Positions 2,664 through 12,442 of a stretch of DNA of 64,000 nt are shown here, in pieces (the stretch's first letter is position 1; each line of letters starts with the position of its first letter). The notes beneath the pieces were generated by a model. That model saw nothing but the letters and a program-made list of their open reading frames with translations. It was not told the DNA's origin and did not search any database. The stretch is taken from contig CP089278.1 of the NCBI GenBank assembly GCA_023920165.1, forward strand, positions 744,001-808,000, written 5' to 3'. The position numbers were made by a program, and so were the translations under genes. Source of the DNA: Curvularia clavata. Taxonomy: Eukaryota.

Positions 2664-3626
2664 ATGGCTGTAACCAAGGAAAACCGCACGTTGGCCATCC
2701 TCAGTGCCGCTGAGGCTGGGGGTTACGGCGTCATGGCCGCCATTGCGTAAGAAATCACCTCTCGACGTCTTGCGCACCACTGAATCCCCCAGGTACAACT
2801 TGGAACACTTGACTGCTCTGGTCCGCGCAGCCGAAGCAAAACGATCGCCTCTCATAATCCAACTATTCCCGTCGACGCTCAAGCAACTCCCTCTGCTCGC
2901 TCACGCCGCTGCACACGCCGTAAAAATATCCACCGTACCACTCTCCCTACACATCGACCACGCCCAGAATGTCGAACACATCCGAGAAATCATCGACACA
3001 CTTCCTGTCGATTCCGTGATGGTAGACATGTCTCATTACGACGAGGCCGAGAACCTAGAGAAGACGAGGATACTGACAAAGGAATGTCACGACCGAGGTA
3101 TTGCAGTCGAGGCGGAGAGCGGAAGGATCGAGGGAGGGGAAGATGGTATTGCTGACACTGGCGATCTTCAGGGTATGATTCTCATGCCTCAGACTCCTTG
3201 TTCATCACTGACTTCTGAGTAGCGCTCTTCACGTCCCCCGAAGACGTCGACAACTTCATCGCCGCCGGAATCGATATTCTCGCCCCGTCCATCGGCAACG
3301 TGCACGGCGACTACGGCCCCGCCGGCCCAAAGGAAGGCCAATTACACTATGACCGTCTCGAATCGATAAATAAACAGGTCAATAAGCGCGTAAGGATTGC
3401 GCTACATGGCACCAATGATTTTCCGCCAGAGGTTATGCAGCGCTGCATCCGATCGGGTGCTATCAAGCTCAATGTGAATAAGTTGTTGCTTGAGGCGGGA
3501 AATGAGGTGTTGAGAAAGAATGCGCCGACGACGCTATTGGCGAAGTTAATTGATATGCAGATGGATGCGATACAGAGGGAGACGGAGAGGTGGATGGATA
3601 TTTGTGGGAGCAGCGGGAAGGCGTAA
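2664..3626 (+). CDS. Class II (metal-dependent) fructose/tagatose-bisphosphate aldolase-family protein (3 exons)
   Basis: MAVTKENRTLAILSAAEAGGYGVMAA start; motifs LHIDH, VMVDMSH, VEAESGRIEGGED, SIGNVHG, ALHGT, KLNVN; introns near 2747-2793 and 3173-3222. Confidence 0.9.
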
Positions 3627-4003: not shown

Positions 4004-4684
4004 GATGTTTATTTCCTGATTAGAAAAATATATATAGTTACACAACAACTCATTGCGCTTGCAAGTGCTCATTTCTCGGTCACTTCGTAGACATCTAGCA
4101 AGATGAAAAAGTTTTCGCGCATGTCGGGGCGCCAGATGTGGGGCTGAGGTGGAGTTTGGAGGGGTAGGTCCTGTATATGCAGATTGAGCAACAGAGAAAC
4201 GACCGGGCGAAGAAAAGCGCGGTGTATGACAAAACTAGTTGACAGGACGTGATTTGTGTGTGGATGTGATTCTAAATGGTAGGAGATGCGCGCGGACCTG
4301 GCTTGGAAGGAGTGGTGAGAGTGCGACGGATGCTGGCTGTGGGTATGTTGCCGCGACATGGTTTGTGAGGAGAGGACGGAGCGTTCAGAGTGCTTGTGCG
4401 GGCGAGGTGCGTGGTAGGTAGTAGAGAGGGAAGGGAGAGTGGGGACAGCTGGGTAGGTTGTTTGGGGAGGAGAAGGTTCTGGGCAGTGAACGTATGCATC
4501 TGAGACAGGCTTGCGTTTGCCTCTAGTTTGAGCAAACTATACAGTCCCAATATACCACCCCGTAGCTCGAAAATAGAGTAAATATTTTCGGAGATAGGTT
4601 ACAGCCTTGCGAATTAAACGCCATGATCTATGCTATGCGTTTCTAGCTTCCCGAAGGAGAGGTGTATCTATTCCTGCAACACGT

Positions 4685-6532
4685 CTATGAAAACGAGGGC
4701 TGGAGCTTCCCAGACACCCTCTCCATCACTCTGACCGGCAGCAAACTATCATAAACGTGGTTGATCCACTCACAGCAAACGCGTCGCGTATATGCCGGAT
4801 CAATAATCTCTTCAACGCCAAACGCATTCGCAGTGCGAACAGGGTTCATCAACCGCTTGTACTCGGCTTCAAGCTCAGCGTAACGCTTGTCACGCGCTTC
4901 TTTCCCTTCTTTCCTCTCGACTTCTTTAAGTTCAAAAGAATGTCCGACTTCGATACCACCTTCCAGCGGCAAGGAACCCCAAGTGCCAGAAGGCCAGGCA
5001 ACACGCATGCGAGGATCACGGCAATCTAGCATGACGCCTCCTGCTACACCGTATACCCGGCGCACGATGACGTTGAAGATGGGCATAGTTGTACTGTAGT
5101 ATGTCGTTGCAAGTGTGATGCCATGTCGCATCGTGGCATTACGCTCCGCAACAGTGCCAATAGCATATCCTGGAATGTCGACGAATTGGAGGAGCGGGAT
5201 ATTGAAGACATCCAGGAACTTGAGCATACGAGTAATCTTTTGTGATCCCAATGCATCGAGTGCACCCGCGTTGACCTCGCAGTTAAGCGATACAATACCG
5301 ACTGGGTTTCCTCCCAGACGCGCCAAACCAACGATAGCCGTGGTCCCCCACAGGGCGCCAATCTCGAAGAACGACCCTTGATCCACTACTTCGGCGATGA
5401 TGGCACGGGGATTGTACATCCTATTTTTGGCTCGCGGGATGATTGATCGAAGTTTTTCTGATGTTCGATCGATCGGATCGGTGCAGTCGATTACAGGAGG
5501 TAGTTTTGTGCCGCAATCAGGGAGGTAACTTAGTACCGTTCTGATCTGTTCGAAACAGCCGGCCTCATCGGGTGCGAGGTTGTCGATTGTGCCGTTTGTG
5601 CAGTGTACGGCAGGGCCTCCAAGATCTGTCAATGACAGTTCTTCTTCGAACGTAGCGTTCTTGACAACATTTGGCCCTGCGTTGAATAGCGCTCCAATGT
5701 CGCCAGCCATGACAGAAAAGTGGCAAGACACAACACGAGCTGCTCCCAAGCCGATAGCTGGTCCTAAAACCGCACCTAGATTCGGTATGCCGGCATTAAG
5801 TTGGCTGACGACATGTTCGAAGGCAGGTAGAGGAGGGATGTACGAGTATCCCCAAGAGCGAATTGTAGTCACAGAGCCTCCTCCGGACGAGCCGTCTACG
5901 AGTTTGACAATGGGAAGCTTGAGCGCAAAGGAGAGTTTCTCCATATAAAGCTATGTTCATGAGCGACTCTGCAGAAGAACGAATTCTTGGACGTACCGTC
6001 TTCTCCATCAGTGAGCCATCGGCATGTCCAGCACGTATTGAAAAGTCGTCCGCTGTAAAAACAATCTTTCGTCCTCGCAATTTTCCAAAACCTATGATGG
6101 ATTAGCATCTACTGCAACCAAACCTGTATGAGCCATACCCTGGACATTATTTGACGGTACATATTCCTCTGGCTCTTCTTTTGACGGCCCCAACTGTTTC
6201 CACTTGACTGTACCACTGACACTGCCCACCTCCTGGAAACTGCCCTCGTCCAGTAATTGCTCAACTCTTTCACGAACCCATAGTTTCCCAGCCTGCTTCT
6301 GCCTCACATAGCCTCGATTCTTCGGATCAGGTGTGACGGCAATCTTCCGAAGTGTTGCAATTTGCCCAAGTATATCCGAGTAGTCGGCCGGTAGATCTGA
6401 ATCTGCGCCCTTTCTCCGTCGTCTTCTAGGCGTCTCAGGCGCGATGTGCGAACTGACCTGAGCGAGCCTGGCTTTCGCAGCTTCAGATGACGTCGACGCG
6501 TCTTTTGGGGGATTTTGCTCGTCACCAGCCAT
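4685..6532 (-). CDS. Carboxyltransferase (beta) subunit of a biotin-dependent acyl-CoA carboxylase (PCC/MCC/GCC-beta-like), 3 exons
   Basis: ORFs 6092..6595, 5796..6080 and 4685..5944 splice together; motifs GKLWVRERVEQLLD, ADDFSIRAG, LVDGSSGGG, LFNAGP, DLGGPAVH, FVDIPG, VRRVYG, EEIIDPAYTR. Confidence 0.9.
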
Positions 6533-6984
6533 TGCAATGGAGAGGAGAGTTGGAACAATTGCACTACAAGGCTCCAGAGAGGAGACCCTGTTCAATTGTC
6601 ATATTCGAAGTAGATAACCTGACACACGCTCAGACAATTGTCGCGGTGCAAGGTTGGGGTAAGGCCGGGGAACCGAGGCATCTGGTCGTTCCCCCGCTTA
6701 CCCATGCCCTTCTCGGGATAGCTGACGGTAATTCCGAATGTCGCGCCCATGTCACCGCAACGACGACCCTGAAATAATCGACATATCATGTATGCTTCGG
6801 TCAATATGTAAAGAGCCTCATACTTAGTATACGTCGCATCTTACACGCTGTGAACTCCGAGACACTGCTATCTCACCCTGATTCTCATTGATTTGTATTC
6901 CAACTTATTTCCTTCGACCATAGAAAATACGATTTCTGGTGCCATTTGATAGAAGTATCACTTGGTCTCTCGGGAGCAGAGAAA

Positions 6985-9042
6985 ATGGACCGTCCGTTGC
7001 AAAGGCCCATCCAGCGACTTTTGGTCGCCAACAGAGGAGAAATTGCAACAAGAATCATTTCCACAGCCCGAGAACTCGGTATTGAGACGTACGCTATTTA
7101 TACTGCTGGCGACGACTCGCATGCTGCAAGAGCAGCTCATGCAATCCAGCTCGAGTCGGCAGCTACTTTCATGAGCATCGATGGCCTCATTGAAATCATC
7201 AGGCAACATCAGATCGATGCTGTGCACCCTGGATATGGCTTTCTTTCCGAGTCTGAGAATTTTTGCAAGAGAGCGTGGGAAGAAGCAGGTGCAGTAGTTG
7301 TGGGCCCTGGATGGGGTATCCTCAGTAATACCGGGGACAAGCTAAAGGCGAAACAGCTTGCTGAGGGATGTAAGTCACGTGGGTACAAGCGATACAATCT
7401 CCGTGAGACTGATTTCTATACAGGCAACGTTCCGACATGTCCAGCACTTGAGAACCCCACCAACAGGATCGAAGATATACAGCAATTTGCCTCACGGGTG
7501 GGCTATCCCGTCATGGTCAAAGCTGTAGATGGAGGTGGTGGTCGTGGAATCCGACTTATTCGTAGCGAAGATCAACTCGCGTCATCAGTGAAACGAGCAG
7601 TCGAAGAGAGCCCGTCCAAGACCGTGTTTGCCGAGAAGGCAGCAGTCGACGGCTTCCGACATATCGAGGTCCAGATTATCGGCGACGGCACCGGCAATGT
7701 GACGCATCTGTGGGAACGCGAATGCAGCATCCAACGGCGTTATCAGAAAGTTGTAGAGCTGGCGCCGAGCGTTGTAGCCGAGCGGTCGTTGATTGCGAAC
7801 ATTATCGAAGCCGCGTTGAGAATGGCAAGACATGTTCGTGAACATTGAACCCCATTCTGACAAACAAGACTGACTGTTGATTAGGTTCAATACTTCTCCC
7901 TAGGAACATTCGAATTTCTTGCCAACCCAGTCTCGAAAGAATACTACTTTCTAGAAGTCAATCCACGGCTACAAGTTGAGCATACCATCACCGAATGCAT
8001 ATCCATGACCGACATTGTCAAAGCCCAGCTCCTACTCGCCCAAGGAGCTACAATCGAAAGCTGTGGTCTCCCAAGCACCCCCAGAGACCCCAAGACGCCG
8101 CCGACTGCACATTCAATCCAGCTGCGCATTACAGCCGAAAATGTACAAAGCGACTGGTCTCTCTCGATTGGAAAAATCACCTCTTTCCAATTCCCCTTTG
8201 GCAATGGCATACGCGTTGATACGCACCTCGCCAGCAGCCGTCCAACCATCGTAACCTCCGACTACGACAGTCTTTTGGCCAAAGTCATCATCACAGCCTC
8301 CACCTGGCCCGACGCCGTGCGCAAAGCCCAGCGCGCCCTTTCCGACACGCAGATCAGTGGCGTGAAAACAAACATCGCTATGCTCCAAGCCGTAGCCTCG
8401 CACCCAGACTTCCTCGCCGGAAACTGCGACACACAGTGGCTTGAACGAAACCAAAGCGCACTGTTGCAACAAGCTCAAGCCATCTCCTCTTCATCCTCCT
8501 CCAATAACCTCTCCACGGGAGCGACATCCACGCCCACAACTCTCTCTACCCCAAGCACCACCCTCTTCCGGAAAGGCGACGCATGGTCTCTCGCCCTCTC
8601 GCCTGCCTCCAACCCCTCCCAATCTACACCGCACCACCTCGAACTAACCCGCATCCACCGCAACGACTTCCCTTCCTCCCTGACCGCCTCAATCCTGTTC
8701 ACCTCCCCTGGCGCCACACCAACGCCCTACACCCTGACTCTCACGTCGACCTCGGCTAGCGCCTCTGCCGCAACAGCCCAGCACCGCCGCGGCAATCCCG
8801 CCGACGCCTCGCACGTTGTGATACCTTTTCCAGGGAAGCTAGTTGAGGTGCTTGTGGAAGAAGGGGATGTGCTGGAGCAAGGGGATGTAGTGTGTGTTGT
8901 GCAGCAGATGAAGATGGAGTTGGAAGTGAGGAGTGCGCGGAGAGGAAGGGTGAGTTGGGTTGTGGAGGTTGCAGAAGGGGAGGATGTGGGAGAAGGGACG
9001 TTGGCGGCGGTTGTCGAGGTGGAGAAGAGTGCGAGATTGTAA
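6985..9042 (+). CDS. Biotin carboxylase + biotin-carrier (alpha) subunit of an acyl-CoA carboxylase, 3 exons
   Basis: LLVANRGEIA, HPGYGFLSE, KAVDGGGGRG, RHIEVQ, ERECSIQRRYQK, LEVNPRLQVEH, YDSLLAK. C-terminal biotinyl domain with QQMKME (biotinylated Lys); ends -KSARL. Confidence 0.92.
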
Positions 9043-9125: not shown

Positions 9126-9797
9126 CTACATTATCTCGCATGTAACCCTCGTATGAACATTTCCCCTCGTCGCTCTACTGTATGGGCACACTTCTTGCGC
9201 TTTGTCCACGACTTTCTTTAGATCTTGCTCGGATAGGCCGCGTACTTTGACGAGTAGTTGTACGCGCAGACCCAGGTCGAGATCTTTCATGTTGCCGACG
9301 AGTTCGACGGTGGATTCGACAATGGAGTCGGAGGGGGTAGTGGGCATTTTTATGCCCATGGAGGCGGCGGAGGCGTTCATGGCGGATTGGAAACATGCGC
9401 CCTGAAGGGTGAAGGGGTGGGTTAGCATGTCTGGCATTGTGAAATGGAAAAGGGAAGGACGTACGTAGCCTGCAGCGAAGAGTTCTTCCGGGTTGGTTTT
9501 GCCCTTGTCGCCGGCGCCGCCAAGGGCTTTGGCCATGGTCAGATCGACCTTGAGGTTTTCGCCGTCGACGTGGCTATATTTGGTTTTGTTAGCTTTCGAC
9601 GCGGAAATAGATTACATTAGAGATGTAGAACGATTCTTTGCGTACCCTGTTCGTGCCCCGACAACTTTGGCGTGTGCCGAGTAGAGGCTAGGTGCGGTCT
9701 CGGTGTTCAGGAAGCGGCGGCATGGCGGTGCAATGATGCTTCGCTGCGAAACGCGAAGAGCATGGCGAAGCGTTGGTACAACAGATTTACTGGCCAT
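9126..9797 (-). CDS. ohr: Ohr/OsmC-family organic hydroperoxide peroxidase with probable mitochondrial presequence
   Basis: Spliced product has ARTG, TNPEELFAAGYGACF (peroxidatic Cys) and VCPYS (resolving Cys). The N-terminus MASKSVVPTLRHALRVSQRS... is Arg/Ser-rich and lacks acidic residues. Confidence 0.9.
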
Positions 9798-10374
9798 TGT
9801 GTTAAAAGATTTCATGAGCAGAAATGTTTAACAGTTGAGAACCAGGAAAGAAGATTGAAATATAAACAATTGTGTGAGAGGAAAGCTAATTAACTCCAGG
9901 TTACGTAGACTCAACAGTAGAGCGAAAGTTTGGGAGCTATGACAGCTGTGACGTTGCTGCATCCGTCCGGCTCTGCTCTGCATGAATGCAAAAGTCATGA
10001 CGTTTGCGAGAGAGCTTCATTGTGGAGCTTAGCGGGTTAGCGCGAGGTACTCCCGCCGCTAGGAAGCGAAATCTGGGGGAAGGGTAAGCTGGTGTGGAGC
10101 AAGCAGCGTGGAATCTCAAGGTAGGCAAACCGATCAAAGAAGTAGCAAATTTTAGATGTTAAACATTGTATACTACGCAAGGCACAACACTTCGTTGGTG
10201 ATCATAATGCCGGAGATTGTTGCAGGTGACATGGCACACTGACAACACTGTGTTGGGATAACGCTAAGAAAATGGAAAGTGTTATAATAGAGAAAAGAAC
10301 AGAGCGCGATATTTTGTGATCAACAATAGAGATTCTAAGCTTTTTGTGCAGTGCTTCGTGTTTCATGACATTGT

Positions 10375-11686
10375 TCAATAATCTAATGTCTTTTTGATAG
10401 CGTCGTACACCCCTAATCAGGTTAGAACAAGGTAAAGCCATGTGAGACAGTGGAACAACTTACGTGTAACGTCCGGAATGATGAATTGCTCAAACATGAG
10501 CCCAGTGTGTGTTGCCCAACCGGTAACCCTCTTCACTGGAGCCTCTAACCTCAGGAAAGCCTTTTCTTGGATGGTAGCAGCAACCTCTGCGCCGACGCCA
10601 GCGTTCATCATGCTCTCGTGGACTACAATGGCTCTGCCAGTCTTTTTGACGCTTTCCAGAACCGTCTCGCGATCCCAGGGGTAGATGGTTCGCAGATCGA
10701 TCAACTCGACACTGCATCCAAAGTCCTTCTCGGCAGCTGCTATGGCGGCAGAGCAAGTATAAAGTGGGGTGCCGTAGGATATTATTGTCACGTCCTTGCC
10801 TGTCTTGACAACTTCAGCCTTGTCTAGTGGAAGGTGGTAGGCATCGACTGGGACTTGCTCAACAGCAGCGCGATACAAGATCTTGGGCTCCATGAAGATG
10901 ACGGGGTCTTGGCAGCGAATGGCAGAAAGGAGAAGGCCCTTTGCCTGGACGGGCGAGCGAGGTATCACGACGCGGAGACCAGGTGTGTGAGTGAAGAGGG
11001 CCTCTGGTGACTGTGTGTGGTATCTAGGCAAAAAGTCAGTTTTGGTAAGGATTCGGGTAGCTCATCACTTACAGAGCACCGTGTCCGACGCTGCCCGTTG
11101 GCATGCGTATGACCAAGCCACCACAGTTGACACCAGTTTTGCCTGACCGATACCTGTACTTGGCGGCCTCGTTGTGGATCTGGTCGAATGCGGGGAAGAC
11201 GTAGTCTGCAAACTGGACCTCTGCTACAGGCTTCATGCCCTCGGCGGCAGCACCAATGGCAAAGCCGACCAGGCCCTGCTCGCTCAATGGCGTGTTGAAG
11301 ACACGCTCTGTACCAAAATCGCCAGCCAGATTCATGGTGCAGCGGAAGACACCTCCAAACTGAACGTCCTCTCCGAAGACCATGACTCTTTCGTCCGTCT
11401 GAAGGGCATGTCGAAGGGCCTCGTTGATGGCGGTGTACAGGTTGATGCGCTTCGTCTGGCCGTTCCGTATCTCTGCGGGCAACTCGGGGTTGGAGAGGGC
11501 GGACTTGGCCGTGTGATGGAGGATTGGGGTCGTGTCGTACTCGACTGTGCCATTGAGACGTGCGCCTGGTGCAGCGGCCGAATAGGTCCTGCGTTGGATG
11601 CGGGCTTGACAGAGAGGGCGAAGCGGAGTCTGAGAGCGCAGCAGGGAACGCGACAGGGTACGGACTGAGGGAGTTTTGGAAGCCAT
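10375..11686 (-). CDS. Branched-chain 2-oxoacid (2-oxoisovalerate) dehydrogenase E1 beta subunit, mitochondrial, 3 exons
   Basis: [73 protein letters not shown]; mitochondrial-type N-terminus; last exon [10 protein letters not shown]. Confidence 0.93.
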
Positions 11687-12442
11687 TATGACCGAGGCGA
11701 GAGCAACACGTCTATCCAGCAACAGTGCAAAGAGACATGTATGCAAACCATGGTGGGCGTAAACAGGCGAGCCGACGGGTTTGCGGTTGTGCGGTTGTAT
11801 GCGGCGGCTAACCGCGGCTCTCCAGCTGGGATGCAGCGCGGAGGTGAGTTGCGGGTTCCCCGGACCGGACGGCTCGTCATGTGTTTCACCAGCCACTATT
11901 CAGCCACGGCAGTTTGAGCTACGGAGCATAGCTGCAGCCACAGCTAGCCACAGCGCATGCACAATGACGCCGAGAGTGGCTTCCAGGGTGTGTCATTGTG
12001 GTTCCCACGGTGGAGACAGCCTAGCGTAAGCGTGTATGAATGCGTGTGTGGTGGCGGCGCCTCGGCTATCTTTTTCGTCTGCATGCAGGGCTGGTTCCTG
12101 CGCATGCTTGGATTCGTAACGATGGGCAGCGTGAGCAGAGGACTTCGAGACGGTGGCAGAGACTGCCCAGCGGCGGAAGCTTGGCTGCATGTGTTGCCAT
12201 GGGCGCGAGGCTCTCTTTTGTTGGGGAAAACGCTGGGCGCTCTCTCAATGGCGGGTCCTGGCCTAGCCTGCCAGGCGGGCCGCGCACGGGCCATCCAAAC
12301 CGCTGCTTCCGCATCGCCATCATTATTTGCGCAACCACCCACCAACGGCTTCCGTCTGCCCAGCACGCTTCGCTCCTCTTATACGGCCGCCGTCTTCATC
12401 CACCCCGCGCACTACGGTGCCTGCATCTTGCTAGCTGTGGCT

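Follow-up and report, generated by a model that had tools for sequence, protein, structure and literature searches.

Where in a fungal cell does a biotin-dependent carboxylase act when neither of its subunits begins like a mitochondrial protein and each appears to carry a different signal for import into the peroxisome? The question is raised by a pair of genes in a 64,000-nucleotide stretch of the Curvularia clavata genome (contig CP089278.1, positions 744,001 to 808,000), referred to here in full as the window. One gene encodes a carboxyltransferase (CT) subunit, beta, and the other an alpha subunit that joins a biotin carboxylase (BC) domain to a biotin carboxyl carrier protein (BCCP) domain. 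The pair probably specifies a peroxisomal, fatty-acid-regulated acyl-CoA carboxylase whose two subunits are imported by a type 2 and a type 1 peroxisomal targeting signal (PTS2 and PTS1), respectively.

The genes are arranged as follows, in window coordinates; both were assigned from Pfam matches, splice joints and open spliced coding sequences.

4685..6532, minus strand: beta subunit gene, carboxyltransferase, 584 aa, ATG at 6532
6532-6139, 6091-5997 and 5950-4685 (stop included), minus strand: beta exons, separated by introns 6138-6092 and 5996-5951
6985..9042, plus strand: alpha subunit gene, BC, putative PT/BT-like linker and BCCP, 650 aa, ATG at 6985
6985-7369, 7424-7833 and 7885-9042 (stop included), plus strand: alpha exons, separated by introns 7370-7423 and 7834-7884
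8905..8916, plus strand: biotin attachment motif QMKM, Lys codon at 8911-8913

The four short introns were first predicted from the sequence and then matched as exact joints in contigs from public runs: 5950/5997 and 6091/6139 in beta, the latter read after a stated cut shift, and 7369/7424 and 7833/7885 in alpha. Runs X1 and X5, which share one organism code and come from two studies, each contain one spliced contig per gene, X24 covers three joints and X9 two beta joints. Because the introns are missing from the contigs at these joints, the runs are taken to be transcript-derived, with a contig depth that cannot rank expression. The beta and alpha transcripts are separate (contigs 4673-6657 and approximately 6764-8960), and both spliced coding sequences are open throughout. 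The first alpha intron is 54 nt long, in frame and free of stop codons, so that the unspliced gene reads as one open reading frame (ORF) from 6985 to 7848. The contigs show that this intron is removed by splicing; its retention would add 18 residues within the BC domain.

In Pfam, beta matches Carboxyl_trans (9e-71), the double-crotonase-type carboxyltransferase family PF01039. Alpha matches Biotin_carb_N (from residue 9), CPSase_L_D2, Biotin_carb_C and Biotin_lipoyl (9.3e-12), and in NCBIfam and PDB it matches BC domains best, as for an ATP-grasp biotin carboxylase. Its BC domain holds a catalytic block, EVNPRLQVEHTITE, and a glycine loop, KAVDGGGGRGIR, which we take to be the BC catalytic motifs. 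The M-K-M of the biotin site is invariant across 17 aligned alpha sequences. Alpha relatives were further compared in 72 database proteins (P0121-P0191 and P0220, from a search limited to proteins of at least 675 aa), of which 65 carry QMKM; the rest have VMKM (4), MMKM (1), LMKM (1) or no MKM (1). All 31 complete copies of alpha found in fungal loci have QMKM. The spliced beta protein is 92% identical to a Bipolaris protein (P0001). For its largest exon, identity is 93% with proteins of Bipolaris sorokiniana and B. maydis and 81-88% with the other listed Pleosporales and Aureobasidium proteins. Aureobasidium pullulans, with P0068 as its orthologue, also possesses the pair.

Judged by eye, neither N-terminus looks like a mitochondrial presequence: beta is acidic there, with four acidic residues among its first 30, and the BC domain of alpha begins at about residue 10. 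What the subunits carry are two candidate peroxisomal signals.

6443..6469, minus strand: PTS2-type nonapeptide RLAQVSSHI, beta residues 22-30, from sequence and orthologue conservation
9031..9039, plus strand: PTS1 tripeptide ARL at the alpha C-terminus (...EKSARL), stop at 9040-9042

The beta nonapeptide fits the N-terminal pattern of PTS2 cargo, [RK]-[LVI]-x5-[HQ]-[LAIVF] (PMC8611851). Its conservation was followed in 80 fungal loci from a metagenome scan (61-87% identity, several of them near-duplicates), 73 of which include the beta N-terminus. The nonapeptide position is kept in 73/73: 64 are strict R[LIV]x5H[LIVMAF], eight are RAxQ[LVI]xxH[LIV] and one is RLNQLSSQI. Among full-length database orthologues of beta, 11 of the 12 read have RLxQVxxH[ILVM]; in the twelfth (P0119), which is seemingly mis-modelled, the N-terminus is unrelated. 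The nonapeptide is seen too in representatives of further fungal clusters. It lies 21-43 residues N-terminal to a conserved LPADYSDIL block, in surroundings that vary in sequence and length. A basic run, RRRRRK, follows it (window 6400-6420, beta residues ~38-44) and is kept by most orthologues as KRRRRK or RRRKK; this run could belong to a longer import signal, serve for processing or be a patch resembling a nuclear localisation signal.

At the other end of the enzyme, the ARL of alpha fits the C-terminal pattern of PTS1 cargo, [SAGCNP]-[RHK]-[LIM]. In the 72 database proteins, 56 C-termini are of the form [SAGCPNT][KRH][LIM] and five more are x[KRH][LIM] (EKL, WKL or YKL), for a total of 61. 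Seven of the 11 exceptions are fused models of 819-1448 aa, and the other four end in ALL (twice), SML and MAV. Of the 31 complete locus copies, thirty have a C-terminus of the form x-[KR]-[LI] (ARL, TRL, NRL, SRL, AKL, SKL, GKL, PKL, IKL or SKI) and one has ALL. Among alphas, the 5-25 residues that precede the tripeptide vary in length and sequence; a tail that drifts in front of a tripeptide that is kept is expected if selection acts on the tripeptide itself. Some database models (P0148, P0165, P0174, P0170) are joined to unrelated domains, for example KR, PP-binding and ADH domains in Botrytis porri or an extra 350 aa in two Aspergillus species. Such fused models are probably merged neighbouring genes, which mask the PTS1 in annotations.

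By rough arithmetic, a PTS2-like nonapeptide in the first 60 residues would occur by chance in some 0.5% of proteins and a canonical PTS1 in some 1%. For both predicted signals, conservation among orthologues is the decisive point, and the comparison that bears on it shows both to be kept across many fungi. All sequence statements of the initial annotation are confirmed as correct. It had described head-to-head genes with starts about 450 bp apart, a QMKM biotin motif, an alpha subunit whose BC domain begins almost at its start, the lack of mitochondrial-type N-termini, RLAQVSSHI as a PTS2-type match at beta residues 22-30 (6443-6469), which holds on the spliced protein, and an alpha C-terminus KSARL with ARL (9031-9039) as PTS1.

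A third kind of conservation is found between the two genes.

6533..6984, no strand: shared bidirectional promoter region, 452 bp; beta contigs stop at 6657, alpha contigs start at 6764
6673..6678, minus strand: CCTCGG, Far/CTF1-type fatty-acid response element, sole copy in the intergenic region, between the transcript 5' ends

Of 36 non-redundant intergenic regions between alpha and beta, 35 contain CCTCGG on one strand or the other, where shuffled sequences predict 5.8. When all hexamers are counted without bias, this one occurs in the largest number of these divergent promoters, the runner-up reaching 27/36. Beta genes without an adjacent alpha have it as well, within 600 bp upstream in 13 of 13 non-redundant cases (2.8 expected). 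This makes 48 of 49 non-redundant promoters in total, compared with 6/49 and 3/49 for controls from the same loci (450 bp downstream of beta and coding sequence, respectively). Across the whole window the motif shows no enrichment (33 sites vs 27.6 expected). The hexamer is the promoter box of the Far/CTF1 fatty-acid regulon: two reports describe it as the site bound by CTF1alpha/beta and FarA/FarB, which regulate the genes for cutinase, fatty-acid catabolism and the peroxisome (PMC5068947, PMC4117967). With such a box in their promoter, both genes would turn on alongside the genes of fatty-acid catabolism and the peroxisome. The peroxisomal interpretation is thereby strengthened by three independent kinds of conservation, in PTS2, PTS1 and promoter box, and a peroxisomal location for the enzyme is strongly predicted.

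Which acyl-CoA might such an enzyme carboxylate? Among solved chains, beta scores highest against beta subunits of the propionyl-CoA carboxylase (PCC) or acetyl-CoA carboxylase (ACC) type (204-226 bits), followed by AccD5 (178). The CT domain of long-chain acyl-CoA carboxylase (LCC) gives 117 bits, beta subunits of methylcrotonyl-CoA carboxylase (MCC) 134, 120, 102 and 92, and that of geranyl-CoA carboxylase (GCC) 114, all below the PCC-type chains. The distance to PCC itself is large, as a control PccB-type protein of Mesobacillus scores 621-750 bits against the same solved PCC chains; the Mesobacillus CT paralogues were labelled by PDB score, NCBIfam giving no label. In NCBIfam, beta has a far sub-threshold match to mmdA (248 bits vs a cut-off of 999). 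In a tree built with a quick method and SH-aLRT support only, a branch marked 100* splits the family from four other Mesobacillus CT paralogues, the PccB-type control included, and a fifth paralogue (L165) and the CT of locus L084 fall inside the family; no named MCC, PCC or GCC references are among the sequences of this tree. Its eukaryotic members group with two bacterial single-chain proteins at weak support (86-92), with open forks. By these scores and this tree, beta belongs to a deep, uncharacterised branch of PccB-like carboxyltransferases and is neither MCC- nor GCC-like.

These comparisons bear on two other identities for the enzyme. The first is an ordinary mitochondrial PCC, in line with many source names, among them ‘Propionyl-CoA carboxylase beta chain, mitochondrial’, and with the PCC/ACC chains that are the best solved matches of beta. 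The gap to genuine PccB-type scores, the 100* branch, the far sub-threshold mmdA match and a Gly at the equivalent of PccB D422 all speak against it, as do the lack of a presequence-like N-terminus and an alpha BC domain that is nearest to pyruvate carboxylase and not to PCC alpha (360 bits vs ~280 for PCC and MCC alpha). This identity is extremely improbable, and the database names, including ‘pyruvate carboxylase’ or ‘PycA’ for alpha, are misleading.

The second identity is a peroxisomal carboxylase of the geranyl-CoA or methylcrotonyl-CoA kind, which would unblock beta-methyl-branched or terpenoid acyl-CoAs. The initial annotation had proposed this by analogy with AtuC/AtuF, and had also considered that the pair might be the MCC orthologue of the genome. 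The two-subunit layout is indeed that of AtuC/AtuF and MCC, peroxisomal beta-oxidation would benefit from such unblocking, and active-site residues atypical for PCC leave specificity open. Nevertheless, MCC and GCC beta chains are the weakest matches against 178-226 bits for PccB/AccD-type chains, the tree places the family with PccB-like CTs and their bacterial relatives, and hydratase or lyase partners are not found nearby. This kind of substrate is quite unlikely. Since even its best MCC beta scores (120-134 bits) are far below those of the PCC type, beta is not regarded as an MCC orthologue, and the analogy to AtuC/AtuF is not supported: the GCC beta score is just 114 bits and the CT is of the PccB type, which carboxylates the alpha-carbon. 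Of the earlier interpretation, a co-regulated two-subunit biotin carboxylase distinct from MCC, with conserved PTS2 and PTS1 and no mitochondrial-type N-terminus, is supported; its terpenoid or branched substrate is not. As the CT is PccB-type, a straight-chain substrate (acetyl-, propionyl-, butyryl-CoA or longer) is favoured over one of the methylcrotonyl or geranyl type.

Between the BC and BCCP domains of alpha lies a further conserved region.

8452..8745, plus strand: putative PT/BT-like linker domain between BC and BCCP, a conserved block in the 17-sequence alignment

It is about 100 residues long, and an AlphaFold model folds it as one helix and a four-stranded sheet. Means of the predicted local distance difference test (pLDDT) over blocks of 10 residues are 92, 58, 33, 51, 78, 73, 84, 79, 85 and 75; values below 50 are found at residues 207-225 (exon-3 numbering), between the helix and the strands, and the strands are mostly at 73-85. 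Residues 231-380 of the model align best to the PT and BCCP domains of a two-subunit pyruvate carboxylase, 5ks8_C (Z 11.8, root-mean-square deviation 10.7 over 127 residues). The model suggests that the linker is a small PT/BT-like docking domain. A look-up in the ESM Atlas returned automatic names only.

That alpha and beta are partners is indicated by both gene order and bacterial relatives. Alpha is found directly upstream of beta, divergent and separated by 285-886 bp, in 41 of the 80 fungal loci, and 23 are too short to judge. In bacteria, one chain, P0259, covers both, with residues 2-465 matching alpha and residues 562-1123 matching beta; because bacterial relatives fuse both in one chain, alpha and beta are expected to work together. 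ORF clustering of the 80 fungal loci and the window yields nothing common beyond alpha, beta and shadow frames. The other fungal neighbour clusters are lineage-restricted housekeeping genes (Fcp1-like phosphatase, sugar transporter, CNNM and RTA1), and no hydratase or lyase partner genes and no leucine or terpene catabolic genes are found near the pair.

In the window, the neighbours comprise a Zn2Cys6 factor, a class-II aldolase-like gene, an OsmC-like gene, a 2-oxoacid dehydrogenase E1-beta-like gene, a CNNM protein and a VIT/vWA protein. The Zn2Cys6 or fungal-specific transcription factor (235-1887) and the class-II fructose-bisphosphate-aldolase-family gene (2674-3626) lie upstream of beta; they adjoin the pair in just 4-5 of 80 loci and are thus probably unrelated to the carboxylase. 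The OsmC-like gene (9126-9815) and the transketolase-fold E1-beta-like gene (10417-11899) lie downstream of alpha and are kept in 7-9 loci of close relatives only. The latter probably encodes the beta subunit of a branched-chain 2-oxoacid dehydrogenase, and its N-terminus appears presequence-like by eye.

Relatives were gathered by an exhaustive representative search and a word-index search. In basidiomycetes, YKL is the C-terminus of the Cubamyces beta, and SHL or SRL that of alphas; a chytrid homologue, from Synchytrium, shows no evident PTS. Relatives in Thecamonas trahens and Diplonema japonicum are BCCP-CT fusions that both end in AKL. Two further non-fungal fusions of this kind have AKL and CKL as their last residues, a third, from Physarum, has no PTS, and the C-terminus of one more relative is SKM. 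Non-fungal eukaryotic BCCP-CT fusions with PTS1-like ends are P0271, P0290, P0263 and P0295.

The bacterial relatives are 35-46% identical, and most are single-chain BC-BCCP-CT proteins of ~1100 aa. One homology cluster, whose median representative has 1132 aa, holds an ORF from 76 of the 80 bacterial loci. The best solved match of P0259 is a long-chain acyl-CoA carboxylase (4rcn), with a score of only 483 bits. Bacterial neighbours, each in at most 10 of the 80 loci, include acyl-CoA dehydrogenase, enoyl-CoA hydratase, CoA-transferase III, short-chain dehydrogenase/reductase, luciferase-like monooxygenase and HpaB-like hydroxylase. In Mesobacillus harenae (L084, 4698-11260), a stand-alone CT homologue with 42% identity is codirectional with an SSF symporter gene and two fatty-acyl-CoA-ligase-like genes (labels below NCBIfam cut-offs). 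Next come a sigma-54 activator and an ABC transporter of the branched-chain type; the same genome contains at least six full-length PF01039 genes. These contexts are compatible with acyl-CoA metabolism and nonspecific as to substrate.

The proposed mechanism, inferred throughout in its import, assembly, induction and catalysis, would begin at the short bidirectional promoter, which would drive both genes and tie them to fatty-acid catabolism by its CCTCGG box. Beta would be imported by Pex7 through its N-terminal PTS2, and alpha, which presumably receives its biotin in the cytosol, by Pex5 through its C-terminal PTS1. In the peroxisomal matrix, the holoenzyme would act on an acyl-CoA from beta-oxidation: alpha, with its BC domain, PT/BT-like linker and BCCP domain, would carboxylate its own biotin at the expense of ATP, and beta, as a PccB-type double-crotonase CT, would move the carboxyl group onto the alpha-carbon of the acyl-CoA.

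Several observations weigh against this proposal. Sixteen of the 80 fungal loci have 1.5-10 kb of sequence upstream of beta and no alpha in the available flank. In the alignment of beta to Streptomyces coelicolor PccB (3ibb), G182 is replaced by Ala, G419 by Val and D422 by Gly, the last within the beta motif RRVYGVAGGVM. We take the two glycines to be those of the oxyanion hole and D422 to be the specificity residue; with all three equivalents changed, the chemistry may depart from that of PCC or ACC. At -3, the PTS1 is variable (TRL, NRL, IKL, EKL and WKL, as well as ALL in two database proteins and one locus), and the window alpha has acidic residues at -6 and -8 before ARL. Acidic residues upstream of a PTS1 tripeptide can weaken the signal. 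The relatives in Physarum and Synchytrium are without an obvious PTS. Many copies, RLAQVSSHI included, close the PTS2 with I or V, where the classical residue is L or A, and the splicing runs (X1, X5, X9 and X24) carry the label ‘RNA? (a guess)’. Searches for localisation or activity data on any family member found none. An I or V at the last PTS2 position is allowed by the glycosomal pattern quoted in the accessible part of one paper (PMC8611851). Yeast lysates of Histoplasma are described, in the available portion of the report, as containing two endogenous biotin proteins only (PMC13343957), which would count against the enzyme only if Histoplasma has the pair.

The loci with beta and without alpha are L003, L010, L012, L016, L017, L021, L022, L023, L025, L027, L028, L031, L056, L062, L063 and L064, with flanks of up to 10 kb per side. 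Several of them show RAxQ... instead of R[LIV]xQ... at the PTS2 position.

Some of these observations would be explained by a cytosolic acyl-CoA carboxylase whose PTS-like motifs are weak, masked or conditionally used. The variable -3 position, the acidic residues before ARL in the window copy, the distant relatives without a recognisable PTS and the lack of any experimental localisation found would all agree with it. However, both signals are kept in dozens of divergent orthologues while adjacent residues drift, other lineages bear another PTS type on the same enzyme, and the promoter box is that of fatty-acid and peroxisome regulons. A cytosolic enzyme is therefore judged unlikely, and import into the peroxisome remains the preferred interpretation.

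The relatives outside ascomycetes allow a broader proposal, which is possible and offered tentatively. The enzyme may belong to an old, scattered eukaryotic family of biotin carboxylases targeted to peroxisomes or glycosomes, which would use ATP to fix CO2 onto an acyl-CoA within the organelle under fatty-acid control and make a peroxisomal pool of malonyl-, methylmalonyl- or alkylmalonyl-CoA. Such a family might range from ascomycetes (PTS2 and PTS1) through basidiomycetes (PTS1 on both subunits) to Thecamonas and diplonemids (PTS1 on BCCP-CT fusions). Such a pool would imply an as yet undescribed peroxisomal pathway that consumes it.

The established functions of peroxisomes include oxidase reactions, beta-oxidation, the glyoxylate cycle and a number of biosynthetic steps. 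In the full-text literature searched, no description of a peroxisomal biotin-dependent acyl-CoA carboxylase was found, and tables in subscription journals (the Penicillium microbody proteome and the original FarA/FarB paper) could name one. The accessible parts of papers on Diplonema, Polytomella, Pelomyxa and foraminifera mention no such carboxylase (PMC8611851, PMC9637915, PMC8887013, bioRxiv 10.1101/2022.07.20.500910). For the Histoplasma peroxisome proteome, the supplementary files seen do not contain the searched words and the available text names just MCC and pyruvate carboxylase (PMC13343957). As far as the literature searched shows, what is new here is the predicted compartment for a known kind of enzyme, an uncharacterised CT branch and an unusual split of import signals. 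Were the proposal correct, many fungi would possess an additional branch of peroxisomal beta-oxidation that turns an end product or dead-end acyl-CoA into a carboxylated CoA ester. This would bear on the handling of propionyl- and acetyl-CoA and of unusual fatty acids such as cutin and suberin monomers, and on extender-unit supply for peroxisome-linked secondary metabolism, and it would imply a demand for ATP and bicarbonate in peroxisomes. It would also be a clean natural case of one enzyme whose two subunits use two import routes. The prediction is open to direct testing by standard localisation, streptavidin-blot and enzyme assays.

Compared with known systems, the window pair shares most with PCC (PccA/PccB, AccA3/AccD5 and human PCCA/PCCB), in which alpha likewise contains a BC domain, a linker and a BCCP domain and beta is a PF01039 protein. 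PCC/ACC beta chains are the best solved matches of the window beta, and alpha-carbon carboxylation is expected by homology. Unlike in PCC, however, beta is distant (204-226 vs 621-750 bits) and has Gly at the D422 equivalent, so that it does not qualify as an orthologue of PccB/PCCB. In the model, the linker of alpha appears small and may be PT-like, a helix with four strands in place of a full BT barrel; the BC domain is closest to pyruvate carboxylase, and predicted PTS2 and PTS1 stand in place of mitochondrial presequences.

LCC (4rcn) resembles the nearest bacterial relatives of both window subunits, which are single-chain proteins. In contrast to LCC, the window enzyme is encoded by two genes, each with a spliced transcript of its own, and its match to the LCC CT is weak (117 bits). 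No solved structure or described substrate was found, in the searches made, for any member of this CT branch. MCC (mccA/mccB; LiuD/LiuB) and GCC (AtuF/AtuC) are two-subunit biotin carboxylases, as is the window pair, and the mcc genes of Aspergillus nidulans form a divergent gene pair, as here. The window beta differs from MCC and GCC in being of another type, in having no mitochondrial signal and in having no leucine or terpene catabolic neighbours.

For the division of import signals, precedents come from other peroxisomal enzymes. Thiolase carries a PTS2. Among fungal siderophore enzymes, SidI is described with a PTS2 and SidH and SidF with a PTS1, so that partners in one pathway are split between Pex7 and Pex5 import, according to the accessible part of the source (PMC3709128). 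Unlike in the siderophore enzymes, the predicted signals in the window sit on two subunits of a single enzyme.

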